Below, in pieces: positions 5,687 through 45,135 of a stretch of 45,135 nucleotides of DNA. The stretch comes from a virus. Below the pieces are notes generated by a model. It did no database searches, was not told the DNA's origin, and saw nothing but the letters and a program-made list of their open reading frames with translations. The position numbers and the translations under genes are program-made. The stretch's first letter is position 1. Each line of letters opens with the position of its first letter. The stretch lies in IMG/VR virus record IMGVR_UViG_3300045988_040126, one strand, 5' to 3'.

Positions 5687-6156
5687 CCGAATTAAATTGC
5701 GTCCTTGTCTTTCAGGAAAAGGCGGGGGCAATTACGGCATATTACCCGTACACAAAATGGCGAAATATCCTTGACGCGCCGAACGTCGGCGCAATGGAAA
5801 GTGACCTGTACGGGCATATCGGAAATACTGACGTTCACGTGACGGCGGCGCAGATCAGCAATTACGACACCGCGATTGCTGGGCTGATCGAGCATACAGA
5901 GAATGCAGAAATCCACATTACGGCGGCAGAGCGGGCGACATGGACCACGGGCGCGCAAAAGGCAGAACAGGCCGCGGCGGACGCTTCAAGCGCGCTGAAC
6001 CTTGCCGCGTCCCTTGAAAGCCGCGTCGCCCGCGTGGAAGATGGCCTTTTCAACAACATTACCGGGAATCCGTTTCTTGTTTCTTTTGACGCGCTGGACG
6101 GCGTATCGCTTGTCAAGGGCGTTTGGAACGCGGATCGGCAAAGAATCGAATGTTGA
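5683..6156 (+). CDS. tail fibre-associated protein (coiled-coil; function unknown)
   Basis: 157 aa, translationally coupled (ATGA) to the fibre gene. It has an Ala-rich coiled-coil segment. No family was recognised. Confidence 0.5.
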   Translation: MTELNCVLVFQEKAGAITAYYPYTKWRNILDAPNVGAMESDLYGHIGNTDVHVTAAQISNYDTAIAGLIEHTENAEIHITAAERATWTTGAQKAEQAAADASSALNLAASLESRVARVEDGLFNNITGNPFLVSFDALDGVSLVKGVWNADRQRIEC

Positions 6157-6470
6157 CGGAATATGCTTGCACCCGCCGGGAATTGTCCTGCATTATCGGC
6201 AATCTGTTTACGGAAATTGAACCGCCTTGCGAACGGTGCGGGGACGCTGACGAAATCACGATCAGCGGGACCACCTACACCGGGAGCCGGGCGGTTCTTA
6301 CCGTAACACGGTTCGGGTTCACCTTTGACGGGGACCCGGCGGAAGTAGAGCGAATCCGGGAAAGGCGGTGCTTAATTGGAGGGCAGAAAGAAACAGGCAG
6401 AGCAAACGGAATTTGCGATCATCACAAAGGCGAAAGACCTTGTGAAGCACACGTTTCTAATGACGAATGA
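6150..6470 (+). CDS. hypothetical protein (uncertain; overlaps the avd start by about 95 nt)
   Basis: The ATG at 6150 overlaps the upstream stop (ATGTTGA). 106 aa with a CxxC pair. The long overlap with avd makes the true extent doubtful. Confidence 0.3.
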   Translation: MLTEYACTRRELSCIIGNLFTEIEPPCERCGDADEITISGTTYTGSRAVLTVTRFGFTFDGDPAEVERIRERRCLIGGQKETGRANGICDHHKGERPCEAHVSNDE

Positions 6471-6807
6471 ACGGCGCTTTCCGAAAAAGTACCGATTCAC
6501 GATTGTAAACCGTCTGCATGACCTGACGATTGATATTTTCCAACACATTCAGGAAGCGAACGAACTTGATATTGCGGACCCGCAAGAATACAGGGAACGG
6601 AGGTACGAACAGAAAAAGGCCCTGACGAAGTGCAAGACGGTTCTATTCCTGATTGAATTATCTTTTGAAAACGGCTTGATTTCGGACGATCAATGCGCCG
6701 CGTGGTCAAAATACGTCCTTGACGTTAAGTACATGACCGCAAGCTGGCGCAAGAAAGACCGGGAACGGGCCGTTGCTATGCAGAGAGGAACCCCGCCCCG
6801 GCGGTAA
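6376..6807 (+). CDS. avd: DGR accessory variability determinant (Avd-like four-helix-bundle protein)
   Basis: About 143 aa, basic and helical. The FPKKYRF..VNRL....I.I...I.EAN pattern is typical of Avd / four-helix-bundle proteins. It lies immediately 5' of TR. The TTG start is uncertain. Confidence 0.8.
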   Translation: MEGRKKQAEQTEFAIITKAKDLVKHTFLMTNERRFPKKYRFTIVNRLHDLTIDIFQHIQEANELDIADPQEYRERRYEQKKALTKCKTVLFLIELSFENGLISDDQCAAWSKYVLDVKYMTASWRKKDRERAVAMQRGTPPRR

Positions 6808-6841
6808 CGCCCGGCGGGTTTTCTTTGGGGTGCGCCCTGTA

Positions 6842-6936
6842 GCGTCCAACTCGTACAACGTCCGCAACGTCAATTCCTCCGGCGCGATGAACTGGAACAA
6901 CGCGTACAATGGCAACAACGGCGTTCGCCCGCTTTG
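6842..6936 (+). repeat. DGR template repeat (TR)
   Basis: 95 bp, non-coding, containing 23 adenines (mostly in AAC/AAT triplets). It aligns without gaps to 8975-9069 and (89 bp) to 21245-21333. Confidence 0.9.
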
Positions 6937-7205
6937 GTGGAAAACCGCGATTGAGTAAGCCGAAAGGCCGAAAACAGAGGACCACCCACAAAGGAGGGCG
7001 TATCCCTCCGTCGTGGTGACAGCACGGCGGTAAATACAAGATTGGTGAAGCAAGGTCCACGGAAACCAGCTTCCGTCCCGCTGCGGGCGCGCGGTGGGGT
7101 CCGATGATGAAGCATTGCACAACGAAACAAGGAACCCCGGCGCGTGTGCGTCGGGGCGTTTTGTTCCCTGCATGGCGGAATCTATACACGGCAAGGAGTT
7201 TTTAT
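6937..7205 (+). ncRNA. putative DGR RNA spacer region between TR and RT
   Basis: A 269-nt non-coding gap containing local hairpins (for example ggagggcgtatccctcc at about 6993-7009). By analogy with BPP-1, the TR-adjacent spacer is part of the template/primer RNA. Confidence 0.4.
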
Positions 7206-8327
7206 ATGCAAAACGCAGATTTCGAGCGGGTTTATGATTTCGGCAATCTATACGCCGGATTCCTGAAAGCCCGTCGGGGCAAGAGGGGCAAAGCAAGCGT
7301 CGCAAAGTTTGAAGCGAACTTGCTGGAGGCCCTTTGTTTGCTTTCGGAAATGTTGAAAAACAAAACGTACAGGCCGTCCGACTATTTCGTGTTCCGGGTA
7401 TATGAGCCGAAAGAACGAATCGTGATGACCAACGCGTTCAAAGACAAGGTGGTTCAACATTCCCTATGCGACAACATACTTGAACCCGCGTTTTCCCGCG
7501 GGTTTATCCGGGACAATTACGCGTCGCAGAAAGACAGAGGGACGCACGACGGATTATATCGGCTGGAAGCGTTTATGCGGTCCTATTACTTCACGCGGAA
7601 AAACAGAGCGGAACAGGCACGCCGGGAAGCGGGCTTGCCGCCGTTGCCGCCGAAAGAAGCAGGGTACGCCGACGGCTGGGTTTTGAAGTGCGATATATCA
7701 AAGTATTTCTATTCAATCCAGCATGAGCCGTTAAAACGAATGGTGCGGTCATACGTCCGGGACCCGGACGTTTTGTGGCTTACTGACATGATAATTGACA
7801 GCACCGAAAATCCCGGAATACCTATCGGCAATCAGACTTCACAATGGTTCGCCGTCATGTACCTTTCGGGGTTAGATCACTTCATAAAAGAGAAGCTGGG
7901 CATTCGCTATTATGGGCGGTACATGGACGACTTTTACTTGATACATGAGGACAAGGCGTACTTGCGGTATTGCTGGGCGGAAATTGAAAGGTACGTCGGC
8001 GAATTGAGATTGAAGCTGAACAATAAAACAAACATCTTTCCTTTGCGGAACGGCATTGACTTTTTAGGTTTTCACACGTATTTGACCGATTCGGGGAAAG
8101 TGATTCGGAAAGTTAGGAGGTCAAGCAAATGTAACGAACAAAGGAAGATGAAGAAACAGCGGGCTTTACTGGACGGCGGCAAAATCACCCTTGCGGAGAT
8201 CGAACAATCTTACGGAAGCTGGCGGAGCCACGCAATCAAGGGGAATTGTTATCACCTTGTCCGGGAAACGGACCGCACATTCAAAAATCTATTCAAGGAG
8301 AGTGAAAAACAATGGCAAAAGCATTAA
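7206..8327 (+). CDS. DGR-type reverse transcriptase
   Basis: AAGGAG RBS at 7192-7197 followed by an ATG. Contains the catalytic YMDD box (GRYMDDFYL) and the IGNQTSQ motif typical of DGR RTs. About 373 aa. Confidence 0.9.
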   Translation: MQNADFERVYDFGNLYAGFLKARRGKRGKASVAKFEANLLEALCLLSEMLKNKTYRPSDYFVFRVYEPKERIVMTNAFKDKVVQHSLCDNILEPAFSRGFIRDNYASQKDRGTHDGLYRLEAFMRSYYFTRKNRAEQARREAGLPPLPPKEAGYADGWVLKCDISKYFYSIQHEPLKRMVRSYVRDPDVLWLTDMIIDSTENPGIPIGNQTSQWFAVMYLSGLDHFIKEKLGIRYYGRYMDDFYLIHEDKAYLRYCWAEIERYVGELRLKLNNKTNIFPLRNGIDFLGFHTYLTDSGKVIRKVRRSSKCNEQRKMKKQRALLDGGKITLAEIEQSYGSWRSHAIKGNCYHLVRETDRTFKNLFKESEKQWQKH

Positions 8328-10030
8328 GTTCCCTTGCCGTCGGCGCGCTTGTCAAAGACACCGGGACGCTTTACAACGGCAAGCCTATTGTCTGGAAGAT
8401 TGCAGACAAGGGGCATACCGGCTACCCGTCCGGGTCCGTGACGCTGATTACGGAAAAGATCATTTCGTTAAAGTGCTTTGACGCTATCGAATCGGGGAAC
8501 AGCGACAGCAACCGCCGTTCTTACGGCAATAACCGCTGGATTTACTCGAATATCCGGCAATGGCTGAACAGCACCGCCGCCGCGGGTAAATGGTACAGCG
8601 CACAGCACAGCGCAGACGCGGCCCCGACGAATGCCAACGTATGGAGCAATTACAACGAATACGATCAGGAAGCGGGCTTCCTTGACGGGTTCTCCGCGAA
8701 CTTCCGTGCGGCCCTGCTGGAAACAACGCACACCGTCGGCAAAGCGTCGGTGGACGGCGGCGGAACCGAAACTTGCAAAGACAAGATTTTCTTTGCGTCC
8801 AGTACGGAAGTGGGCTTGACGGGTGACGCGACTTGCGGCACAAAGCTGGCCTTGTTCAGCGACGACAATTCCCGTCTGGCCTACCCGACCGCCGAATGTG
8901 TAAGCAAAAGCGAATACACGAACAGCAGTTTTGCCGCTTCAAAGCCGTGGTGGTGGTGGCTTTGCGACGCTTACGCGTCCCGCTCGTACAACGTCCGCGG
9001 CGTCGATTCCTCCGGCGCGATGAGCTGGAGCAGCGCGGGCAATGGCGGCAACGGCGTTCGCCCGCTTTGTAATTTGTCATCTTCAATCTTGGTATCTGAT
9101 AACCCGGATTCGGATGGCGCATACACAATCGTATGGAATCAGGCCCCGACGGTCCCCGGAAGTATCACCGTTCCGACGGACGTTCGCGGAGGAAGCAACC
9201 TGACCGTAAGCTGGGGAACGTCCACGGACAGCGACGGCAATTTGTCCGGGTACATCTTGGAGCGCCAGCACGACGGCGGCACGTGGACGCAGATTTACAA
9301 GGGAATCAACCGCACGTACACCGACGCAATCACGTTCGGCTGGAAGAACGTTGCATACCGCGTGAAAGCCTACGACAGCGCCGGGGCCGCGTCCGGGTAC
9401 AAGACCAGCGCGACCCGAACCGTCGTGAACAACACCGCGCCCACGATCAACGGCACAGATTCAAACATCGGAACGAAAACAGGGCCGTTCAATCAGGGCT
9501 ACACCGTCACCGACCCGGACAGCGGGCAGACGATCACCGTTGTTGAGAAGATCGACGGCGTGCAAAAGCGGTCCTATACCGCCACAAGCGGGCAGAACTA
9601 TTCTTTCAACGTGACGGCGGCGGAATGGGTGAAGCTTTTGAACGGGTCCCACAAGCTGACGATCACCGCGACGGACAACTACGGCGGGAGCGCAACCCGG
9701 ACGTACACGTTCACGAAGAACGAAACCGAAATTGAATTGACCCTTTCGGCCCCGCTGGACGCTGACGACATGGTGACAAAGGCAATTATGAGCGTCACCC
9801 GGCAGATTCCCGCGGGCGCGACGTTCTCCGTTGAAATGTGCAATAACGGGTATGACGCGTCCCCGACGTGGGAGGACGTGACGCAAGCCGTCATTTCCGG
9901 GAACAAAATCTTCTTACAGAATAAGACAAAGACAGCCGCAAAATGGGGCTTCAACTTCCGAATCAAGGTGAATCGGAACGGGGCCGCGGGCGACTGCTTC
10001 ATTGTTTCGGCAGGGGGGAATTTTGAATGA
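8312..10030 (+). CDS. DGR target protein 1 (N-terminal C-type-lectin-like variable domain plus Fn3/Ig-like domains); likely receptor-binding tail protein
   Basis: 572 aa. WWWW..C..Y precedes VR1, which ends in GVRPLC. Downstream, the segment LTVSWGTSTDSDGNLSGYILERQ...YRVKAYD looks like fibronectin type III. Confidence 0.85.
   Translation: MAKALSSLAVGALVKDTGTLYNGKPIVWKIADKGHTGYPSGSVTLITEKIISLKCFDAIESGNSDSNRRSYGNNRWIYSNIRQWLNSTAAAGKWYSAQHSADAAPTNANVWSNYNEYDQEAGFLDGFSANFRAALLETTHTVGKASVDGGGTETCKDKIFFASSTEVGLTGDATCGTKLALFSDDNSRLAYPTAECVSKSEYTNSSFAASKPWWWWLCDAYASRSYNVRGVDSSGAMSWSSAGNGGNGVRPLCNLSSSILVSDNPDSDGAYTIVWNQAPTVPGSITVPTDVRGGSNLTVSWGTSTDSDGNLSGYILERQHDGGTWTQIYKGINRTYTDAITFGWKNVAYRVKAYDSAGAASGYKTSATRTVVNNTAPTINGTDSNIGTKTGPFNQGYTVTDPDSGQTITVVEKIDGVQKRSYTATSGQNYSFNVTAAEWVKLLNGSHKLTITATDNYGGSATRTYTFTKNETEIELTLSAPLDADDMVTKAIMSVTRQIPAGATFSVEMCNNGYDASPTWEDVTQAVISGNKIFLQNKTKTAAKWGFNFRIKVNRNGAAGDCFIVSAGGNFE
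8975..9069 (+). repeat. DGR variable repeat 1 (VR1)
   Basis: 95 bp aligned to TR with 12 differences. Eleven are at TR adenines (for example AAC->CGC, GGC, AGC) and one is T->G. Encodes aa ~222-253 of the target. Confidence 0.9.
9086..9098 (+). promoter_or_regulatory. conserved element atcttggtatctg, 17 nt 3' of VR1 (candidate IMH/target-recognition element)
   Basis: The same 13-mer at the same 17-nt offset is found after VR2 (21350-21362). It is absent 3' of TR. Confidence 0.45.
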
Positions 10031-11809: not shown

Positions 11810-13429
11810 ATGACGAACGAACAAAAATCTTTCATCGAGCGGGTGGGCAAGCTTGCCGCCGCCGATATGCAGAAAAGCGGCGTGCTTGCGTCCCTGACTA
11901 TCGCGCAAGCAATCCTTGAAAGCGGCTGGGGAAAATCCGGCCTGACGGTCAAGGCGAACGCCCTTTTCGGAATCAAGGCCGGGTCATCGTGGAAAGGCCG
12001 GGTTTACAGCGCAAAAACGCAAGAGTGTTACGACGGCGCAACCTTTACGACCGTGACGGCCCTTTTCAGGGCTTACGGAAGCTGGGCGGAGAGCGTCGCC
12101 GATCATTCGGCGTTGCTGACCGGGGCCGCGCGGTATAAAGCCGTCATCGGGGAGCGGGACTATAAAACCGCTTGCCGGGCGATCAAGGCCGCGGGATATG
12201 CTACGGACCCGAAATACGCGGACAAGCTGATTCAGATTATTGAATCTTACGGCTTGACCGCATACGACGGCGCAGGAAGCGCCACACAGCCCGCAGGACG
12301 GCCCGAAACGTCCGGCGGGAAGAATGACACCGCCGGGGGCAAAACCCCGGCAGACGCGAAAGGAGGGGGCAAAATGAAAGCTTCCGAATTTATCAAGAAA
12401 CTGCAAGACATCGTGGACAATTATAAAACCCTGTACGTCATGGGGTGCTTTGGCGCGCCGCTGACCGGGGGCAACGTGTCCCGGTATTGCACGAATCACA
12501 GCTACAACAAACAGGCGGCACGAACGGCAATGATTCGGGCCGCGGCGAATCAGAACCCGCCCGTTTTCGGGTTTGATTGCGTCTGCTTAATCAAAGGGGT
12601 TCTTTGGGGCTGGAACGGCAACGCGTCCAAAACTTACGGCGGCGCGGGCTATGCCGTCAACGGCGTTCCCGACATTGGGGCCGATTCCATGATTACGAAG
12701 TGTTCGGGGGTATCGACCGACTTTTCAAAGATCGTCCCCGGCGAAGCGGTGTGGCTTTCCGGGCATATCGGCGTTTACATCGGCGGCGGAAAGGTCATCG
12801 AATGCACCCCGGCTTTCAAGAATTGCGTACAGGTGACGGCGTGCTTGAACATCGGCGCTATTTCCGGCATGAACGGGCGCAGATGGACCAAACACGGGAA
12901 ATTGCCCTATATCACCTATGACACAGCAGAAAGCCCCCAGCAGGGCGCACAGGACGGCACAGGGGCGCAGAAACCGCCCGCCGGGTCCTCCGATACCTCC
13001 GCCGCTCTCGCGTTCTCCGTGGGCGACGTGGTGCGTTTTACTGGCAATCGTCACTATACGAACGCGAATGCGTCCAGCGGCCCGGCGTGCAAGCCCGGAA
13101 CGGCAAAGGTGACGGCGATTGCAAAGGGGACGAAACACCCTTACCACCTTATCAAGCAGAGCGGCGGAGGGTCCACCGTTTACGGCTGGGTTGACGCGGC
13201 GGACGTGCAAAAGGCTTCCGGCGGCGGAAACGCCCCGGCCCCGAAAATGCGCGTCGGCGCGCGTGTGAAGTATTCCGGCCCCCTGTACCGGGACAGCTAC
13301 GGCAACGGGCAGGGAAAGGCTGTGAACGGAACGTACACGGTCAAATATTGCTATCCGGGCCGCAAGTGCGGCGTACACATTGACGGGCTGGGCTGGGTCC
13401 CTGAATCCGCTTGTACCGTCATCGGTTAA
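11810..13429 (+). CDS. multidomain endolysin (N-acetylglucosaminidase + NlpC/P60-like cysteine peptidase + SH3-like wall-binding repeats)
   Basis: The N-terminus (ASLTIAQAILESGWGKS...LFGIK) is glucosaminidase-like. The centre has GFDCVCLIKG ... GHIGVYIGG (Cys/His peptidase). The C-terminus has two SH3-like repeats. Confidence 0.85.
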   Translation: MTNEQKSFIERVGKLAAADMQKSGVLASLTIAQAILESGWGKSGLTVKANALFGIKAGSSWKGRVYSAKTQECYDGATFTTVTALFRAYGSWAESVADHSALLTGAARYKAVIGERDYKTACRAIKAAGYATDPKYADKLIQIIESYGLTAYDGAGSATQPAGRPETSGGKNDTAGGKTPADAKGGGKMKASEFIKKLQDIVDNYKTLYVMGCFGAPLTGGNVSRYCTNHSYNKQAARTAMIRAAANQNPPVFGFDCVCLIKGVLWGWNGNASKTYGGAGYAVNGVPDIGADSMITKCSGVSTDFSKIVPGEAVWLSGHIGVYIGGGKVIECTPAFKNCVQVTACLNIGAISGMNGRRWTKHGKLPYITYDTAESPQQGAQDGTGAQKPPAGSSDTSAALAFSVGDVVRFTGNRHYTNANASSGPACKPGTAKVTAIAKGTKHPYHLIKQSGGGSTVYGWVDAADVQKASGGGNAPAPKMRVGARVKYSGPLYRDSYGNGQGKAVNGTYTVKYCYPGRKCGVHIDGLGWVPESACTVIG

Positions 13430-16915: not shown

Positions 16916-16950
16916 ATCATTGCGGGAACCCCGCGGAAAAATAACGGTTA

Positions 16951-16990
16951 AAGCCCGCCCAGACCTTACGGAACGGGCGGGCTTATTTAC
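16951..16990 (+). promoter_or_regulatory. strong leader hairpin (terminator/attenuator-like) in the 5' UTR of the transposase gene
   Basis: aagcccgccc-(14 nt)-gggcgggctt followed by ATTT. It lies between the promoter and the RBS at 16995-16999. Confidence 0.45.
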
Positions 16991-17006
16991 TAACGGAGGT
17001 TTTAAC

Positions 17007-18068
17007 ATGGGACACAAGTTCAGCCATCTTCAAAAGCGCGACCGCTATAAAATCGAAGCGTTGTTGAATACAGGGCATAAACCGCAGGAAATCGCGGACG
17101 AAATACACGTACACGTAAGCACGATATACAGGGAGATCAAACGCGCCCGCATGGTACAGCTTACGACCGATCTCGAAGAGGTTGACAAATACAACCCCGA
17201 CGAAGCCGAAAAGCGATACCGGGAAAACCTTTCGGCAAAGGGTCCGGCCCTGAAAATCGGGAAAGACTTTGAACTTGTGGAGTATCTCGAAGCCAAAATG
17301 CTGGACAAGGACAACCCGCGTTCGCCCGCCGCCGCCCTTGCTGACATCAAGCTGGAGGGCCGGACGTTCAAAACGTCGATTTGCGTAAGCACCCTATACA
17401 GCTACATAGAAAAGGGCGTTTTCCTGACCTTGACGAATGCGGACTTGCCGGAAAAGCCGAAACGGAAGCGGAAATATAGAAAGGTCCGGGAAGCAAAGAG
17501 CGCCGCGGCGGGGGACAGCATAGACCGCCGCCCGCCGGAAGTAGATGACCGAAACACGTTCGGACATTGGGAGGGCGACACCGTTTATAGCAAAAAAGAC
17601 GGGTCAAAAGCCCTGCTTGTGCTGACAGAGCGATTGACCCGCCGGGAAATTATCATGCGGATAAAGGACAGGACCGCGGAAAGCGTGATTAAAGCCATTG
17701 ACCGTATAGAACGGAAATTCGGGGCCGACCTGTTCGCAAAGCTATTTCGGACGATCACGTTTGACAACGGAAAAGAGTTTTCCGACGTGGAGCGGCTGGA
17801 GCGGTCCGCCTTGCGTAAGGGGAAGAAGCGGACAAAGGTTTATTTTTGCCACCCGTATTCATCTTTTGAACGCGGTTCTAATGAGTGCCAAAACAAAATG
17901 ATTCGGCGGCGCTTCCCGAAAGGAACGGATTTCGGCAAGGTATCAGACGCAGAGGTGGCGAAAGCGGAAGCGTGGGTGAACAACTACCCGCGGGAAATTT
18001 TGGGCTGGCAGACCTCCGAAATCCTGTTTCAAGCCTACCTTGCCGCCCTTGTCACCGCCCCGAAATAA
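17007..18068 (+). CDS. IS30-family DDE transposase/integrase
   Basis: 353 aa. N-terminal HTH (PQEIADEIHVHVSTIYREIKR) and DDE-region motifs GHWEGDTV, TFDNGKEF and ERGSNE. Confidence 0.85.
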   Translation: MGHKFSHLQKRDRYKIEALLNTGHKPQEIADEIHVHVSTIYREIKRARMVQLTTDLEEVDKYNPDEAEKRYRENLSAKGPALKIGKDFELVEYLEAKMLDKDNPRSPAAALADIKLEGRTFKTSICVSTLYSYIEKGVFLTLTNADLPEKPKRKRKYRKVREAKSAAAGDSIDRRPPEVDDRNTFGHWEGDTVYSKKDGSKALLVLTERLTRREIIMRIKDRTAESVIKAIDRIERKFGADLFAKLFRTITFDNGKEFSDVERLERSALRKGKKRTKVYFCHPYSSFERGSNECQNKMIRRRFPKGTDFGKVSDAEVAKAEAWVNNYPREILGWQTSEILFQAYLAALVTAPK

Positions 18069-20568: not shown

Positions 20569-20860
20569 AACGGCCCGCCGTGGAGCGGGACAGCCCCAGC
20601 CGCGGCGGAGGACAAGCCGCCGGGCAAAGGTAAGCCGGGAAACAATCGCCCTTTATGCGACGCTGACCGTCGCCGGAATCCTGCTTTTTCGAGCGGGCGC
20701 GGCGGTTGCCTACGTGGAACGCGGGTACAGCGCGGTGGGCGGCGAAGTGTTCGCCTTGTTTCTCCCGGTATTTTACTACATCGTTTCGCAATTCGTCGGC
20801 GATATTGCCGCGGACATGAAAAAAATCAAGGAGGAAAACGACCATGAAAAAACTTGCTGA
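20555..20860 (+). CDS. small membrane protein
   Basis: 101 aa with a basic N-terminus and two hydrophobic helices. It overlaps the next gene by 17 nt. Confidence 0.5.
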   Translation: MTEVKTARRGAGQPQPRRRTSRRAKVSRETIALYATLTVAGILLFRAGAAVAYVERGYSAVGGEVFALFLPVFYYIVSQFVGDIAADMKKIKEENDHEKTC

Positions 20861-21575
20861 ACTGAAATGCGGTGCGCGCTTCACATATGCCGGGGTGGAA
20901 TGGGTCAAGCTGGAGGACAACGACGGCGGCGCGCTTGCCCTTGCCGCCGAACCTGTCTTTGAACGGGCTTTCGACGAAGAGAATTGCAACGATTGGCGCA
21001 AGTCGTCCTTGCGCCGAGAACTGAACGGCCCGTTCCTTGACGCGCTGATTGCAGAGGGCGCAGACCGGGCGGCGTTCCTCGACCTCGAAAGCGACTTGAC
21101 CGCCGATGACGGAATGACCGACTACGGGACCGCGACGGACAAAATCGCCTTGATTTCCGACGGCCTGTACCGCAAGTTCCGCGCCCTGATTCCGAAAATC
21201 GGGTGCTGGTGGTGGACCCTGACCCCGTGGACGTGCGACCCCGAATACTCGTGCCGCGTCCGCTACGTCTATTCCTCCGGCGCGTTGCACTGGTACCGCG
21301 CGTACAATGGCTACGTCGGCGTTCGCCCGCTTTGCAATATGAAATCTGACATCTTGGTATCTGTTCAGGGTGAAGAGAACGCAGACGATCAGGCGGAGCG
21401 CCGGGCCACGGCGGTTGAGGAAGCCGCGGAAGCCGTCATTGACACGCTGGGCGAATATGCCGTGTCCCTTTGGGGCGACGTGCTGGCGGCGGTTGTGTCG
21501 TCCCTCTTCAAGTCGAAGCTGGACGCGGAAGAGATCATGCAGGAAGAGAAAGCAAAAAGGGCGGCGGAGGGTTGA
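20844..21575 (+). CDS. DGR target protein 2 (remote target; C-type-lectin-like variable domain plus acidic/hydrophobic C-terminal tail)
   Basis: 243 aa. CWWWTLTPW precedes VR2, which ends in GVRPLC. The VR matches the TR at 6848-6936. Confidence 0.85.
   Translation: MKKLAELKCGARFTYAGVEWVKLEDNDGGALALAAEPVFERAFDEENCNDWRKSSLRRELNGPFLDALIAEGADRAAFLDLESDLTADDGMTDYGTATDKIALISDGLYRKFRALIPKIGCWWWTLTPWTCDPEYSCRVRYVYSSGALHWYRAYNGYVGVRPLCNMKSDILVSVQGEENADDQAERRATAVEEAAEAVIDTLGEYAVSLWGDVLAAVVSSLFKSKLDAEEIMQEEKAKRAAEG
21245..21333 (+). repeat. DGR variable repeat 2 (VR2)
   Basis: 89 bp aligned to TR 6848-6936 with 14 differences, all at TR adenines (AAC->TAC, CGC, CAC, GTC; ATG->TTG; TAC->TGC; AAT->TAT). 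Confidence 0.9.
21350..21362 (+). promoter_or_regulatory. conserved element atcttggtatctg, 17 nt 3' of VR2 (candidate IMH/target-recognition element)
   Basis: The 13-mer and its spacing are identical to those after VR1. Confidence 0.45.
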
Positions 21576-39310: not shown

Positions 39311-39799
39311 ATGACACCGTTAGAACTGCTGGACGCTTTGAAAGCGTTTATCGAAGAAAACACAAAGGACATCTTGCTTCCCGTCCGGGTGGACAGGAAG
39401 AGCGGAGAAGCGAAAGAGCGGCCCGCGGAGGTCTACAAAATGCGACTTCCGACAAAGGACGCGGAAACGAAGCGGATTCCGTATGTTCTTTTGCAGTACA
39501 TCAAAAGCACAGACACGCAGACCGCCGGGGAAATGCCGGAAAGTTCGTGCATGGTACGGATTGTCGCCGCCACCTATTCGGAGGACGGCGAAGAGGGCGC
39601 ATTATGCGTCCTGAATCTGCTTACCCGGATTCGTATTGCGTTTTTGCGCGACGGCGTGATTGCGGAACGCTTCATGCTGAAACCGCCTATTGAAATGATC
39701 GTCTACCCGGACAGCACGCCGCCCTACTATTTGGGCGAAATGATGACCGAATGGCGAATGCCGATTGTAGAAAGTGAGGTTCAGAAAGTATGGCAGTAG
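39311..39799 (+). CDS. neck / tail completion protein candidate
   Basis: 162 aa. Assigned from its position between the connector genes and the sheath. Confidence 0.4.
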   Translation: MTPLELLDALKAFIEENTKDILLPVRVDRKSGEAKERPAEVYKMRLPTKDAETKRIPYVLLQYIKSTDTQTAGEMPESSCMVRIVAATYSEDGEEGALCVLNLLTRIRIAFLRDGVIAERFMLKPPIEMIVYPDSTPPYYLGEMMTEWRMPIVESEVQKVWQ

Positions 39800-40425
39800 A
39801 GTATAAACCCGGAATGACAAAGCCGGAATTGCTGGAACTTGCCGTTGTGAACGGGATTGACGTTGACGACAGCATGACGAAAGCAAAGATTATCGCCGCT
39901 ATTGACGCGCACAACGCGCAGGAAGCCGCCGAAAGCGGCGGGGAGGGTAACAATACCACCCCGGACGAAAACGCCGGGCAGAGCGGCGCAGAGAACGCCA
40001 CGGGCGACGCTGACACGGGCGGCGGCGGTGACGATACCGCCGGAAGCGGTGAAGAGGGCACACAGGGCGGCGCAGGAAGCGCCGAAAGCGGCGGGGAGGG
40101 TAACAATACCACCCCGGACGAAAACGCCGTACAGGGCGCAACAGAGGACGAAGAGGACGCGCCGGACGGGTACGACCTGTTCGTTTATGCCGGGCCGACC
40201 TTGCCCCGCGGACGGCTGAAAGAAAATGCCGTGTTCCGCGGCACGTTTGAGGACGTGAAAGCCTACCTTGCGGACGTGCTGGAGGTTTACCCGCAGGTGG
40301 CACGGCTGATTGTACCCGTGAACAGGCTGGCGGCATTCTCCGTCAAGGTCAAGACCCCCGGCAACCTTGCACACAAGTATTACAGCGACATTGTTTCGGC
40401 AATGCGCGGCAACAGGGAGGTATAA
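39790..40425 (+). CDS. HeH/SAP-like N-terminal domain protein with an acidic repeat linker
   Basis: 211 aa. MTKPELLELAVVNGIDVDDSMTKAKIIAAI resembles a Rho-N/HeH motif. It is followed by a Gly/Glu/Asp-rich region containing a duplicated AESGGEGNNTTPDENA. Confidence 0.55.
   Translation: MAVEYKPGMTKPELLELAVVNGIDVDDSMTKAKIIAAIDAHNAQEAAESGGEGNNTTPDENAGQSGAENATGDADTGGGGDDTAGSGEEGTQGGAGSAESGGEGNNTTPDENAVQGATEDEEDAPDGYDLFVYAGPTLPRGRLKENAVFRGTFEDVKAYLADVLEVYPQVARLIVPVNRLAAFSVKVKTPGNLAHKYYSDIVSAMRGNREV
39928..39976 (+). repeat. 49-bp perfect direct repeat, copy 1 (in-frame within 39790-40425)
   Basis: gccgaaagcggcggggagggtaacaataccaccccggacgaaaacgccg is identical to 40081-40129. Confidence 0.9.
40081..40129 (+). 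repeat. 49-bp perfect direct repeat, copy 2
   Basis: Identical to 39928-39976. The start-to-start offset is 153 bp (51 codons). Confidence 0.9.
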
Positions 40426-43073: not shown

Positions 43074-45135
43074 TTGGCGGGAAGAAAAGAATTTGAATTG
43101 CTTTTTAAGCTTCAGGCGACGCTGGGGAGCGGGTTTAATTCCAGTTTCAACAGCGCAATGAACGCGTCAAAGCAGTTACAAGGCAACCTTTCCAAAATCA
43201 ACGCGCTTTCCGGGAAGATCGAGGGGTTCCAAAAGCAGAGCGCCGCCCTTGAAGCGAACAAAGACAAGCTGGCGAAGCTGACAGAGGAACACGACCGCTT
43301 ACAGCGGGAAATGAGCCAAACGGAACAGCCGTCGGAAGCCTTGCGGCAGAAAATGGAGAGGAACGCCCGCCAGATTGAGCAAACCACCGCAAAAATTCAG
43401 GAACAGGAAGCCCGGCTGGGTCAACTCGGCGACGAACTACGCGACGCAGGGGTTGACACAGACAATTTGACCGCGGAGAACGAACGGCTGGCCGAAAGTT
43501 ACGAACAGGTCCGCCGGAATCAGGAGCGGCTGGCGAAGATCGGACAGGCACAGCAGAAAAACAGCGAAGCGATTTCAAAGACAAAGACACAGCTTGCCGG
43601 GACGATTGGGACCATTGCCGCGCTGGGGACGGCGATTTATGCCGGACCCGTTCAAAAGTCGATAGAGTTTCAAACGGCGATGGCGAAAGTCGGCACGATT
43701 GCCGACACGAACGTTGTTCCCCTTTCGCAAATGCAGAAAGAGATCATCAATCTGTCTAACGCGCTGGGGGTCAATGCAAGCACCGTCGCGGAGGACGTTT
43801 ACAACGCGATTTCCGCCGGGCAAAAAACTTCCGACGCGGTTGCATTCGTGGAAAAAGCGACCATGCTTGCAAAGGGCGGCTTTGCCGAAACCGGGCAGGC
43901 GCTGGACGTTCTGACGACGATTCTAAATGCCTACGGTATGGAATCGTCGAAAACGGAAGAAATTTCTAATATGCTGATTACGACGCAAAACCGCGGCAAA
44001 GTCACCGTCGCGGAATTGTCGTCGGTCATGGGTAAAGTGATTCCGACCGCGAATGCAAACAACGTCGCGCTGGAACAGCTTTGCGCGGGCTACTCCATTA
44101 TGACAGCCCGCGGCATTGCCGCCGCCGAAACGACAACGCACATGAACAGTATGTTGAATGAATTAGGCAAAAGCGGCACGTCGGCAGATAAAGCGTTAAG
44201 ACAAGCCGCGGGAAAAGGATTCAGCGAACTGATGGCGGAGGGGAAAAGCCTTGCGGACGTTCTGAACATCTTGCAGGGTGAAGCCGACAAGAGCGGAAAA
44301 ACCCTTGCGGATATGTTCGGGAGCGCGGAAGCAGGAAAAGCCGCCCTTACGCTGATGGCAAACGGCGTTGAGGGATTCAACGACGAAGTTTCCGCAATGG
44401 TAGACAGCACCGGGGCCGCACAAGCCGCCTACGAAAAAATGATGAACACGACCGAAGAGAAGATAAAAAAGGCAAAAACGGCCTTGTCGAATCTCGGTAT
44501 TGTGTTGGGTGATACGTTCTTACCATACGTCACAACCGCGGCGGAAAAGTTGTCGGATTTGGTGACGAAGTTTTCGGCATGGGCGCAGGAAAACCCGAAA
44601 TTGCTTTCAACAATCGTCAAGGTTGCCGCGGCCCTTTTGACATTAAAGGCCGGGGGGCAAGCGGGAAAGCTTGCGTTCTTGGAAATCAAGGGCGGAATAT
44701 TGGGGATTCAAGGCGCATTTGCGAAGATGAAAGCGTTTAACGCGTCCGGCGGTATAAAGGGCCTGTTTTCAGGGCTTGGAGGTATCAAAGGAAAGCTTTT
44801 GCCCCTTGTCGGTATCATCGGCGGCGTTGCCCTTGCAATCAAGCTGATTTCCGGCAATCTCGAAGAGGTCCGCGGATGGATTCAACAGACGTTCGGTGAC
44901 GGCGCGCTTGCCGTGTTTGACAAGGTGTGGGGCGTGATTCAGAACGTCGGCGCGGCAATCAAAGGCGTTTTCAGCGGTGAGGGCATGGGAAACGCCCGGA
45001 ATTTCTTTGAAGAGCATTTCGGAGAAGCGGGCGTTGCCGTGTTTGATTCGATCATCGGCGTTGTGGAGCAGTTAAAGGGAATCTTGCCCGTTCTGCAATC
45101 GCTACTTCAAGCACTTATGCCGATCATTCAGGCCG
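43074..45135 (+). CDS. tail tape measure protein, N-terminal part (continues at 1-801; total 935 aa)
   Basis: TTG start after AGGGGG. Coiled-coil N-terminus and a TP901-type core (VGTIADT...AISAGQ...A.....A.....AKGGFAE). The frame is open to the end of the window and across the junction. Confidence 0.9.
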   Translation, partial: MAGRKEFELLFKLQATLGSGFNSSFNSAMNASKQLQGNLSKINALSGKIEGFQKQSAALEANKDKLAKLTEEHDRLQREMSQTEQPSEALRQKMERNARQIEQTTAKIQEQEARLGQLGDELRDAGVDTDNLTAENERLAESYEQVRRNQERLAKIGQAQQKNSEAISKTKTQLAGTIGTIAALGTAIYAGPVQKSIEFQTAMAKVGTIADTNVVPLSQMQKEIINLSNALGVNASTVAEDVYNAISAGQKTSDAVAFVEKATMLAKGGFAETGQALDVLTTILNAYGMESSKTEEISNMLITTQNRGKVTVAELSSVMGKVIPTANANNVALEQLCAGYSIMTARGIAAAETTTHMNSMLNELGKSGTSADKALRQAAGKGFSELMAEGKSLADVLNILQGEADKSGKTLADMFGSAEAGKAALTLMANGVEGFNDEVSAMVDSTGAAQAAYEKMMNTTEEKIKKAKTALSNLGIVLGDTFLPYVTTAAEKLSDLVTKFSAWAQENPKLLSTIVKVAAALLTLKAGGQAGKLAFLEIKGGILGIQGAFAKMKAFNASGGIKGLFSGLGGIKGKLLPLVGIIGGVALAIKLISGNLEEVRGWIQQTFGDGALAVFDKVWGVIQNVGAAIKGVFSGEGMGNARNFFEEHFGEAGVAVFDSIIGVVEQLKGILPVLQSLLQALMPIIQA
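45081..45135. repeat. 55-bp terminal overlap identical to 1-55
   Basis: Exact duplicate of the window start. Confidence 0.95.

Follow-up and report, generated by a model that had tools for sequence, protein, structure and literature searches.

Diversity-generating retroelements (DGRs) with two target genes have already been described in related human-gut phages, namely Lelie and CP11 (PMC11792537) as well as nd4 and nd12 (Baykov et al. 2023, PMC10743442; GenBank OR777945 and OR777946). In Lelie and CP11, a single template repeat (TR) is combined with two variable repeats (VRs), located in a large and a small protein at the C-terminal end of DUF6273 (PMC11792537). The prototype element, that of Bordetella phage BPP-1, has the gene order mtd-avd-TR-brt, with a single target and the VR at the C-terminus of trimeric Mtd. 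DGR RNAs have been described in which the sequences on either side of the TR pair in a distal duplex, the 3' end of the TR takes part in another duplex, and the TR is closely followed by a GNRA-capped stem-loop (bioRxiv 10.1101/2023.10.23.563531).

In the present study we analysed a stretch of viral DNA of 45,135 nucleotides (IMG/VR record IMGVR_UViG_3300045988_040126; hereafter the window), which represents a circular genome of about 45.08 kb. The locus is very probably the DGR of a tailed, temperate phage whose hosts are gut Clostridia, with one TR and two separate target genes, and is a well-supported new example of the two-target design. Its genes and repeats are as follows:

6376-6807, + strand: avd accessory gene, 143 aa, TTG start (phrog_3206)
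6842-6936, + strand: non-coding TR; 95 nt common to VR1, the last 86-89 nt common to VR2
7206-8327, + strand: DGR reverse transcriptase (RT), 373 aa, with the ribosome-binding site GGCAAGGAG ahead (YMDD; PDB and PHROG matches)
8312-10030, + strand: target 1, tentaclin-type protein, 572 aa (Pfam, PHROG, AF2, Foldseek)
8975-9069, + strand: VR1, encoding target 1 residues 222-252
20844-21575, + strand: target 2, small DUF6273 protein, 243 aa (Pfam, phrog_9958)
about 21246/21249-21334, + strand: VR2, the remote second variable repeat, in ORF 20844-21575

The cassette is the same as in nd4 and nd12, with target 1 directly after the RT gene. According to PMC10743442, the first target of these phages is likewise a tentaclin, in which Ig-like domains follow an N-terminal DUF6273/C-lec domain that carries the VR, their TR also encodes a Tyr-Asn-Gly-Asn-Asn motif, and their genomes are small and of the myovirus type, which is matched by the P2-like baseplate genes of the window. 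A small DUF6273 protein encoded 8-11 kb farther downstream serves as their second target (12 kb in the window). The identity to nd4/nd12 amounts to 52-60% for the RT, 52-57% for target 1 (56.5% over its full length at the corresponding place in nd4) and about 45% for target 2 (45% at the corresponding place in nd4); no nucleotide-level match to the window was found in the phage collection. Lelie and CP11 resemble the present locus in having one TR and two DUF6273 proteins, a large one and a small one, that carry the VRs (PMC11792537). Over its C-terminal 200 residues, target 1 shares 38-43% identity with 'Hoc-like' proteins of the Faecalibacterium phages Lelie, CP11, FP_Brigit, FP_Mushu and FP_Toutatis (for the last three see Cornuault et al. 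2018, PMC5883640), whereas the RTs of Faecalibacterium (pro)phages are 43-44% identical to that of the window and the phage backbones differ. The host genus also differs from Faecalibacterium, as the lineage record titles name Firmicutes CAG:124, Acutalibacter, Oscillibacter and Dysosmobacter. With BPP-1 the locus shares adenine-specific TR-to-VR transfer, Avd and RT (that of BPP-1 being the closest solved relative), a VR placed in a lectin-like domain, and structured RNA on both sides of the TR, including a distal duplex and a TR 3'-end duplex. In contrast to the prototype, the order is avd-TR-RT-target, there are two targets, and the VR of target 1 lies in an N-terminal domain.

The cassette and its two targets

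The sequence-only reading of this DNA had placed a complete DGR (avd, TR, RT and a VR-bearing target) among tail genes, at 6376-10030. All of these parts were found there. The Avd-like ORF matched phrog_3206 'Avd protein of DGR' (3e-35, residues 2-142), as well as NCBIfam DivGenRetAVD (2e-7) and Pfam bAvd (9e-4), the latter two under the curated cut-offs. Both of the RT motifs that had been named were located, YMDD at 7920-7931 and IGNQTSQ at 7824-7844, the second of which aligns with IGSLTSQ of the Bordetella RT (bRT) and corresponds to the DGR-type IGxxxSQ motif. The RT reading frame spans 7104-8327, and the start proposed earlier, 7206, is an internal ATG preceded by GGCAAGGAG. The last 16 nt of the RT gene, up to its stop, are indeed shared with the VR-bearing ORF. 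The element is not confined to this interval: the gene of target 2, situated outside it and ~12 kb downstream of the cassette, is also diversified. Upstream of the cassette there are Baseplate_J, Tail_P2_I and a tail-collar fibre gene, while target 1 is followed by a gene for a DUF4376 protein (weak match to a tail-fibre family) and then by lysis genes.

In target 1, an N-terminal DUF6273/C-type-lectin-like domain precedes an FN3/Ig-like region, and the C-terminal part is common to the 'Hoc-like' targets of Faecalibacterium phages; the protein matched Pfam DUF6273 (4e-36) and, over its full length, phrog_10993 (1e-254). In the AF2 model of residues 1-275 (pLDDT 96.4), VR1 corresponds to a beta-hairpin (227-241) and the next strand. 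A Foldseek comparison of this model with solved structures gave 9qa6 as the top match (E 2e-16, TM 0.73; profile match of the lectin-like domain, E 2e-20) and no other significant match, Mtd included. This sole solved structure with the lectin-like fold of target 1 is the Thomasclavelia ramosa IgA protease's N-terminal domain (PDB 9QA6), described as having a C-type-lectin-like core that bears large decorations (PMC12237041); it belongs to a bacterial surface protease, not to a phage protein, and is not known to be diversified. In target 2, DUF6273 was recognized at residues 120-167 (Pfam, 9e-8), and the protein matched phrog_9958 at 2e-74.

Adenine-specific divergence of the variable repeats

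TR and VR1 align without gaps over 95 nt, at the positions proposed earlier, and differ at 12 sites, 11 of which are TR adenines, exactly as had been counted from the sequence (at least 11 of 12 mismatches on the 23 adenines of the TR: hypergeometric P = 1.8e-7). The previously noted predominance of AAC/AAT triplets was also confirmed, the VR reading frame of the TR containing 10 AAC/AAT codons, two TAC and one ATG. The 12 mismatches, among them the remaining one (T->G at 6905), are all at first or second codon positions of ORF 8312-10030. In the case of VR2, every mismatch to the TR is at an adenine (13/13 over 86 nt, or 14/14 over 89 nt) and at codon positions 1-2. Within the window, the TR and the VRs are identical up to the last shared base, and no IMH/IMH* difference is visible.

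The same pattern was observed in related loci. Pooling of about 45 of them placed 511 of 529 TR-VR1 mismatches on TR adenines (331/342 in viral contigs, 149/156 in bacterial genomes and 31/31 in metagenome contigs), and for VR2, 108 of the 121 differences from the cognate TR were at adenines (12 related contigs holding both loci). The adenine columns of 38 related TRs showed no variation, save positions 46 and 77, which change together with their VRs, while the VR columns at TR-adenine positions were variable in 12-70% of sequences. The divergence is adenine-specific and restricted to the VRs, the TR being constant across relatives, which is the outcome that the sequence-only reading had anticipated for such a comparison. 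Non-adenine TR differences between close relatives recur in the cognate VR (ATGAACTGG versus CTGAACAAC; GTTCGC versus GTGCGC), and at the level of sequence comparison this copying shows the direction of information flow. VR1 is a mismatch hotspot when near-identical genomes are compared. In a prophage (L168) whose sequence matches the window at 98.3% identity across 7.1 kb, the TR shows no differences but VR1 shows 18 (13 non-synonymous and no synonymous codon differences), which points to a recent turnover of VR1.

A few VR changes lie off adenines, T6905 in the window being an example, and another cause is needed for these.

Structured RNA and a motif downstream of the variable repeats

The coordinates given earlier contained neither VR2 nor the structured RNA around the TR, nor a 12-nt motif 3' of both VRs. 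The non-coding features are as follows:

6785-6826, + strand: terminator-like GC-rich hairpin with a U-run, spanning the avd stop codon (RNA fold)
6827-7030, + strand: structured non-coding RNA around the TR (covariation)
6827-6838, + strand: 5' strand of a 12-bp long-range RNA duplex, directly 5' of the TR (pairs with 6995-7006)
6936-7030, + strand: structured RNA 3' of the TR, Sp-like (covariation)
6936-6940 with 6982-6986, + strand: TR-end:Sp helix
6945-6946 with 6979-6980, + strand: 2-bp helix in the Sp-like RNA
6958-6969, + strand: GAAA-capped hairpin
6995-7006, + strand: 3' strand of the long-range duplex
7008-7030, + strand: 8-bp hairpin
7031-7045, + strand: spacer motif TAAATACAAGATTGG, near-invariant, apparently single-stranded
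7046-7170, + strand: lineage-specific spacer insertion of roughly 100 nt, with hairpins (spacer comparison)
9086-9097, + strand: 12-nt motif ATCTTGGTATCT, 17-28 nt downstream of VR1
21351-21362, + strand: 12-nt motif ATCTTGGTATCT, 17-28 nt downstream of VR2

Comparison of related sequences revealed that the predicted RNA flanking the TR is conserved with covariation. Its 31 pairs are 94% paired and 22 of them display compensatory changes; none of 500 shuffles reached the observed values, and slid controls were 44-47% paired. For the long-range duplex, 99.2% of cells were paired (30 sequences), with compensatory changes in 8 of the 12 pairs. The elements of this RNA match those described for DGR RNAs, i.e. 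the distal duplex, the TR 3'-end duplex and the GNRA-capped stem-loop (bioRxiv 10.1101/2023.10.23.563531). The columns of TAAATACAAGATTGG were invariant or nearly so in 44 spacers.

The hairpin at the end of avd (-25.5 kcal/mol, z = -3.3) has a counterpart with a T-run at the matching place in one relative (L038), while in another (L007) the fold at this place was no better than shuffles. The spacer insertion, missing in relatives with 58-69% RT identity, ends in a terminator-like stem and T-run identified by a terminator scan (7135-7166; -23.6 kcal/mol, z = -2.7).

The window contains the motif ATCTTGGTATCT at just two places, downstream of VR1 and downstream of VR2. Its third codon positions are 86-100% conserved, compared with 41-90% at neighbouring third positions (51 distinct VR flanks), and we infer that it helps target recognition. 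A GC-rich hairpin or cruciform, such as that of BPP-1, was sought after both VRs and was absent, the post-VR element here being linear. The accessible part of the report on nd4/nd12 (PMC10743442) mentions neither RNA structure flanking the TR nor a 12-nt motif after the VRs.

Proposed mechanism and alternative explanations

The structured RNA with the 95-nt TR would be bound by RT and Avd and copied into cDNA, probably with the spacer RNA priming in cis, on the model of the Bordetella element; opposite template adenines, random nucleotides would be inserted. The cDNA would then replace the homologous VR in the genes of the tentaclin-type protein (VR1) and the small DUF6273 protein (VR2), in both of which the repeat is predicted to encode a beta-hairpin of the C-type-lectin-like domain. 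Since the recodable codons (ten Asn AAY, two Tyr and one Met) are set on a kept scaffold, a binding surface would be re-randomised; codon arithmetic predicts about 1e13 variants of VR1 and about 1e12 of VR2.

It is extremely improbable that the RT is of the retron, group II intron or defence type and that the repeats reflect ordinary paralogy of two lectin-domain genes. Some relatives are annotated as 'retron-type' in GenBank, and the best NCBIfam models were group II intron RT (97.5 bits) and Drt3a (56 bits), but these lead because the library is without a DGR RT model, and the scores are far under the cut-offs (300 and 200 bits, respectively). The RT matched phrog_1423 at 7e-133, and its best PDB match was the Bordetella bRT (8ub7, 1.8e-35), ahead of the retron-type (6e-9) and group II (8.5e-9) enzymes by 26 orders of magnitude, which sets it on the DGR side, as the earlier reading had expected. 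Across the whole window no Rfam family reached its gathering threshold, which leaves group II intron and retron RNAs undetected. Moreover, paralogy cannot explain a non-coding third copy that differs from the other two at adenines alone. A DGR by descent that is now inactive, its cassette merely carried and its TR-VR differences old and fixed, also seems unlikely. Lelie, Lagaffe_CP and CP11 displayed no VR heterogeneity in sequencing reads (PMC11792537), and the terminator-like hairpins flanking the TR RNA could hold expression low; on the other hand, every ORF is intact, the catalytic YMDD is present, compensatory changes maintain the flanking RNA structure, and VR1 of the prophage with an identical TR is completely different.

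The DGR being accepted as such, we infer that the diversified proteins bind receptors, and the phage may have the programmable host-receptor specificity suggested by the sequence-only reading. That these proteins are not tail host-receptor binders is a serious, though not the favoured, possibility: target 1 might decorate the capsid or the virion and adhere to mucus, immunoglobulin or other gut material, and target 2, whose gene lies among early/replication genes, might not be part of the virion. Such roles agree with the annotation of target 1 relatives as 'Hoc-like head decoration', with the homology between its lectin-like domain and the domain at the N-terminus of an IgA protease from a gut bacterium (PMC12237041), and with the location of target 2 between HAD-like and replication-initiator genes, far from structural genes; the authors who named tentaclins allowed for binding of 'intestinal/immune cells' (PMC10743442). 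However, the protease's N-terminal domain is dispensable for IgA cleavage (PMC12237041), target 1 is encoded between the tail-fibre genes and that of the DUF4376 protein, and its residues 366-492 match the solved 'tail fiber protein' 31he at 3.4e-5.

Reverse transcriptase, template repeat and two targets

The retroelement is situated downstream of the Baseplate_J, Tail_P2_I and tail-collar fibre genes of the phage, and is followed by genes encoding a DUF4376 protein (weak match to a tail-fibre family) and an endolysin. The sequence-only reading placed an avd gene, a template repeat (TR), a reverse transcriptase (RT) gene and a gene carrying a variable repeat (VR) within 6376-10030, and all four were recovered as described. 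These parts, together with a second target and a short motif common to both targets, are as follows.

6376-6807: avd
6842-6936: TR
7206-8327: RT gene
8312-10030: target 1 (572 aa)
8975-9069: VR1, within target 1
9086-9097: first copy of the 12-nt motif ATCTTGGTATCT
20844-21575: target 2 (243 aa)
~21248-21334: VR2, within target 2
21351-21362: second copy of ATCTTGGTATCT

RTs of the clade of diversity-generating retroelements (DGRs) carry [I/L/V]GxxxSQ in place of the QGxxxSP of other RTs, together with YxDD. The RT of the window contains IGNQTSQ (7824-7844), which aligns to IGSLTSQ of the Bordetella DGR RT (bRT), and YMDD (7920-7931). Its best solved relative is bRT (8ub7; 1.8e-35), compared with 6e-9 and 8.5e-9 for retron-type and group II RTs; judged from these sequence matches, the enzyme is most probably of the DGR type, as proposed earlier, rather than part of a retron or group II intron. 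The Pfam match is a generic one (RVT_1). A DGR RT model is absent from NCBIfam, whose models for group II and defence RTs matched far under their cut-offs (group_II_RT_mat, 97.5 bits against 300; retron St85, 35.9 against 235). Rfam and tRNA scans of the window gave no matches, i.e. no group II intron or retron RNA family reached threshold anywhere in it. The accessory protein Avd occurs in most, but not all, DGRs. ORF 6376-6807 has a match to phrog_3206 ('Avd protein of DGR', 3e-35), and scores below the cut-offs of the curated Avd models (NCBIfam, 31 bits; Pfam, 20 bits). A 115-aa ORF in another frame (6123-6470) overlaps the first 95 nt of avd.

TR and VR1 align without gaps over 95 nt, and their homology ends sharply on both sides. 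This alignment reproduced the 12 differences counted previously, 11 of them at TR adenines; the probability of at least 11 of 12 falling on adenines by chance (23 A in 95 nt) is 1.8e-7. All 12 are found at codon position 1 or 2 of ORF 8312-10030. Read in the frame of the VR, the TR encodes ASNSYNVRNVNSSGAMNWNNAYNGNNGVRPL, in which ten AAC/AAT codons, two TAC and one ATG account for all 23 adenines. A repeat search of the whole window revealed a third copy, VR2, whose mismatches to the TR lie exclusively at TR adenines (13/13 over 86 nt from TR 6851; 14/14 over 89 nt) and are confined to codon positions 1-2. The element therefore has two targets, one adjoining the cassette and the other 12 kb downstream. 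A similarity of 30 nt within the endolysin gene (12639-12668) was considered as a further VR and dismissed as chance: it does not extend, is not adenine-specific and mismatches at 63 of 109 positions.

The sole non-adenine difference between TR and VR1 in the window is T->G at 6905, the first base of a TAC codon (TR position 64). Independent T->G or T->C changes recur at this position in VRs of the related loci L021, L024, L035 and L094, which may reflect selection at that codon or low-level misincorporation beside adenine.

Adenine-directed variation in related loci

A search with the RT retrieved 80 related viral contigs (from 98% down to 58% amino acid identity) and 80 loci in bacterial genomes. 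Mismatches of VR1 fell on adenines of the cognate TR in 331 of 342 cases among the window and 30 viral loci with gap-free TR and VR1, in 149/156 cases among 13 prophages and in 31/31 cases among three metagenome contigs (511/529 when pooled). The search with target 2 yielded 72 related loci, and in the 12 contigs that also carry the cassette 108 of the 121 VR2 mismatches were at cognate TR adenines. Adenine columns of the TR displayed zero variation across 38 TRs, save two that vary along with their VRs; the corresponding VR columns were variable in 12-70% of 40 VRs. The pattern of an invariant TR and a hypervariable VR, which had been named earlier as a check on the DGR reading, was thus observed in the related loci.

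Between genomes that are ~96% identical, the densest cluster of differences is VR1. Non-adenine differences between their TRs recur in the cognate VR, which indicates that the direction of transfer is from TR to VR. The prophage L168, found in 'Lachnospiraceae bacterium isolate B68', shares 98.3% identity with the window over 7.1 kb and has an identical TR; its VR1 differs at 18 positions, giving 13 non-synonymous and no synonymous codon changes. VR1 alleles with identical flanks were found in only three metagenome and two viral loci, which does not suffice for a test at the population level. We have very little doubt that the element is a genuine DGR and that it has been rightly interpreted.

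Several other features of the related loci were observed. In L002 (11770-11858) and L003 (2152-2240), VR1 is 6 nt (two codons) shorter than the TR of the same locus, which is an in-frame deletion within the variable hairpin. Near-identical genomes also differ more strongly than elsewhere in the region over the stretch of target 1 that immediately precedes VR1 (window ~8690-8975), where comparison with L168 gives 7 synonymous and 8 non-synonymous codon changes; since there is no TR homology there, this divergence is not driven by the DGR. In two short viral contigs (L016, 1-6747; L017, 1-10334), sequence corresponding to 18.2-22.8 kb of the window is fused directly to ~5.0-9.7 kb, which joins the target 2/replication-initiator region to the tail-fibre/avd/TR/RT region and places VR2 3-5 kb upstream of the TR. 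Rearrangement or deletion of the element could account for these contigs, as could chimeric assembly.

RNA around the template repeat and candidate target sites

The spacer between TR and RT is 270 nt long and highly conserved. An RNA structure was built by hand and tested on two alignments; it comprises the following elements.

6827-6838 (just upstream of the TR) with spacer 6995-7006: long-range duplex of 12 bp, 99% of cells paired, 8 compensatory pairs
6936-6940 (last TR base and the next four) with 6982-6986: TR-end helix
2-bp extension of the TR-end helix
6958-6969: GAAA-capped hairpin
7008-7030: 8-bp hairpin

Of the 31 pairs in the whole model, 22 display compensatory changes, and 94% pairing was observed; none of 500 shuffles matched the observed values, and slid controls were ~45% paired. 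A local GGA/TCC hairpin (6993-7005) included in the first model proved invariant and hence uninformative, and was replaced by the covarying long-range duplex. RNAalifold recovered little from the raw MAFFT alignments, owing to register shifts and a large insertion. The RNA of the Bordetella DGR contains (i) a distal duplex between upstream and downstream sequences, (ii) a template-primer duplex between TR and spacer, and (iii) a tetraloop-capped stem-loop directly after the TR, and the same three elements have been predicted in 207 other DGRs (Handa et al., bioRxiv 10.1101/2023.10.23.563531). Counterparts of all three, i.e. the distal duplex, the duplex at the TR 3' end and the tetraloop hairpin, are found in the window.

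Hairpins with U-runs that resemble intrinsic terminators bracket the TR RNA, one across the avd stop codon (6785-6826) and one just before the ribosome-binding site of the RT gene (7135-7166); they might serve to restrict or regulate expression of the TR RNA and the RT. The spacer also contains a lineage-specific GC-rich insertion of ~100 nt with hairpins (~7046-7170), which is present only in closer relatives (RT at least ~78% identical) and varies among them; in more distant relatives the spacer is 147-182 nt long.

The 3' end of a VR with an IMH-type element sets the direction of transfer and is spared overwriting by the TR. In the window, TR and VRs are identical up to the last shared base. 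In several relatives (L013, L032, L034-L036 and the prophages L162, L163 and L169), TR position 93 is C and the cognate VRs retain T, which suggests that the last few bases are not transferred, as expected of an IMH-like end.

A hairpin or cruciform directly downstream of the VR constitutes the BPP-1-type target site, although such a structure is not universal. No inverted repeat of at least 6 nt was detected after VR1 or VR2, and the DNA there folds no better than shuffled sequences. The palindrome GGTATCTGATACC follows VR1 in some relatives; its copy in the window is imperfect, it is missing after VR2, and it was discarded. Where BPP-1 has a hairpin/cruciform, the window has the linear 12-nt sequence ATCTTGGTATCT, located 17-28 nt past the ends of both VR1 and VR2 and nowhere else in the window. 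Conservation at its four third-codon positions is 86-100% across 51 distinct VR1 and VR2 flanks of relatives, compared with 41-90% at neighbouring ones, which points to a constraint acting on the nucleotide sequence. On this comparative basis, ATCTTGGTATCT may be regarded as a candidate target-site element. Pairing of the invariant spacer motif TAAATACAAGATTGG with the ATCTTGGTATCT DNA would give 7+4 bp with one bulge; this possibility is not supported by covariation, since single changes occur uncompensated in both the spacer (A->T in L004, T->C in the L007 group and in L058/L063) and the DNA (L076).

The broader proposal, that the target sites of this DGR lineage are marked by a short sequence-specific DNA element such as ATCTTGGTATCT and not by a DNA hairpin, is a tentative one, which we consider rather unlikely to be correct. 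If true, ATCTTGGTATCT together with the GC-rich 3' end of the VR would let a single TR serve scattered genes, and any lectin-domain gene gaining the tag would become diversifiable; the tag would also explain the retention of target 2, which is encoded among early genes and is possibly a non-virion protein. To our knowledge, the step in which DGR cDNA locates its targets is still not understood. Two handles for experiments on this step are offered here, namely a model, supported by covariation, of the RNA surrounding the TR and the candidate linear motif common to both VRs; they constitute the main interest of the element.

Target proteins, known relatives and genome context

Target 1 contains Pfam DUF6273 (residues 42-256; 4e-36), followed by matches to FN3 (274-364; E 2.4e-3) and to a tail-fibre beta-domain (366-492; 3.4e-5); over its full length it matches phrog_10993 ('Hoc-like head decoration'). 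In an AlphaFold2 model of residues 1-275 (53 homologues; pLDDT 96.4, pTM 0.93), VR1 is predicted to encode a beta-hairpin (strands 227-231 and 237-241) and the next strand. The lectin-like domain (window 8312-9136) resembles 9qa6, the Thomasclavelia ramosa IgA protease's N-terminal domain (Foldseek E 2e-16, TM 0.73; profile match 2e-20), which has been described as a decorated C-type-lectin-like domain (PMC12237041). Apart from 9qa6, Foldseek revealed no significant fold match of the model to Mtd or any other solved structure, and no sequence match to Mtd was found. Mtd of BPP-1 is a trimer whose N-terminal part consists of a beta-prism and a beta-sandwich, and whose C-terminal lectin fold bears the VR at the extreme C-terminus. 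In contrast, the VR of target 1 lies in the N-terminal domain, and the protein is thus not of the Mtd type. The phage may, as proposed earlier, have programmable host-receptor specificity.

Target 2, which matches phrog_9958, contains the C-terminal portion of DUF6273. Its C-terminal 65 residues (window 21380-21575), past the lectin-like domain, include an acidic stretch and a hydrophobic segment, YAVSLWGDVLAAVVSSLF, which could be an attachment or membrane helix.

A nucleotide search of deposited phages gave no match to the window. Among deposited phages, nd4 and nd12 are closest (RT 52-60%, target 1 52-57% and target 2 ~45% identity), followed by the Faecalibacterium phages Brigit, Toutatis, Mushu and Lelie. 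Target 1 is 56.5% identical over its whole length to the corresponding place of nd4, and its residues 350-572 show 38-43% identity to the C-terminal ends of the corresponding proteins in FP_Mushu, Brigit, Toutatis and Lelie. According to Baykov et al. 2023 (PMC10743442), a single TR in nd4 and nd12 serves two targets, namely (i) a 'tentaclin', with an N-terminal C-type-lectin-like (DUF6273) domain that includes a VR-encoded beta-hairpin, then one to four Ig-like domains, the C-terminal of which bears the seven-residue consensus of the family, and (ii) a small DUF6273 protein. The same authors point out a YNGNN motif, as also found in the window. Target 1 shares with the tentaclins the lectin-like DUF6273 domain with its VR hairpin and, as predicted from sequence matches, the Ig-like domains after it, and in nd4 and nd12 the match to target 2 lies 8-11 kb downstream of target 1. 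The same pair of large and small DUF6273 proteins occurs in Lelie and CP11 (PMC11792537). As the two-target architecture has already been published, the window represents a diverged new member of a described class; its DGR is not novel in kind and leaves knowledge of DGRs unchanged. The two-target 'tentaclin' class gains from it a genome that is well documented and apparently complete.

Among temperate phages of gut Clostridia, two-target 'tentaclin' DGRs are a common feature. The DGR region also occurs, in near-identical form, within contigs of bacterial genomes (L153, L168), which indicates that this phage is likewise temperate, and the named hosts of related prophages belong to gut Clostridia (Firmicutes CAG:124, Acutalibacter, Oscillibacter, Dysosmobacter). 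The window also encodes a terminase, a portal protein and an rve-family integrase/transposase; the latter (16920-18068) combines an rve integrase core with HTH domains and is therefore a transposase-type integrase. Target 2 is flanked by a HAD-like gene and a replication-initiator gene, one on each side. The first and last 55 nt of the window are identical (1-55 and 45081-45135), which points to a genome of ~45,080 bp that is either circularly closed or terminally redundant. A 71-nt direct repeat (39927-39997 and 40080-40150; 90% identical, spacing 153 nt) was observed within the otherwise unannotated ORF 39790-40425.
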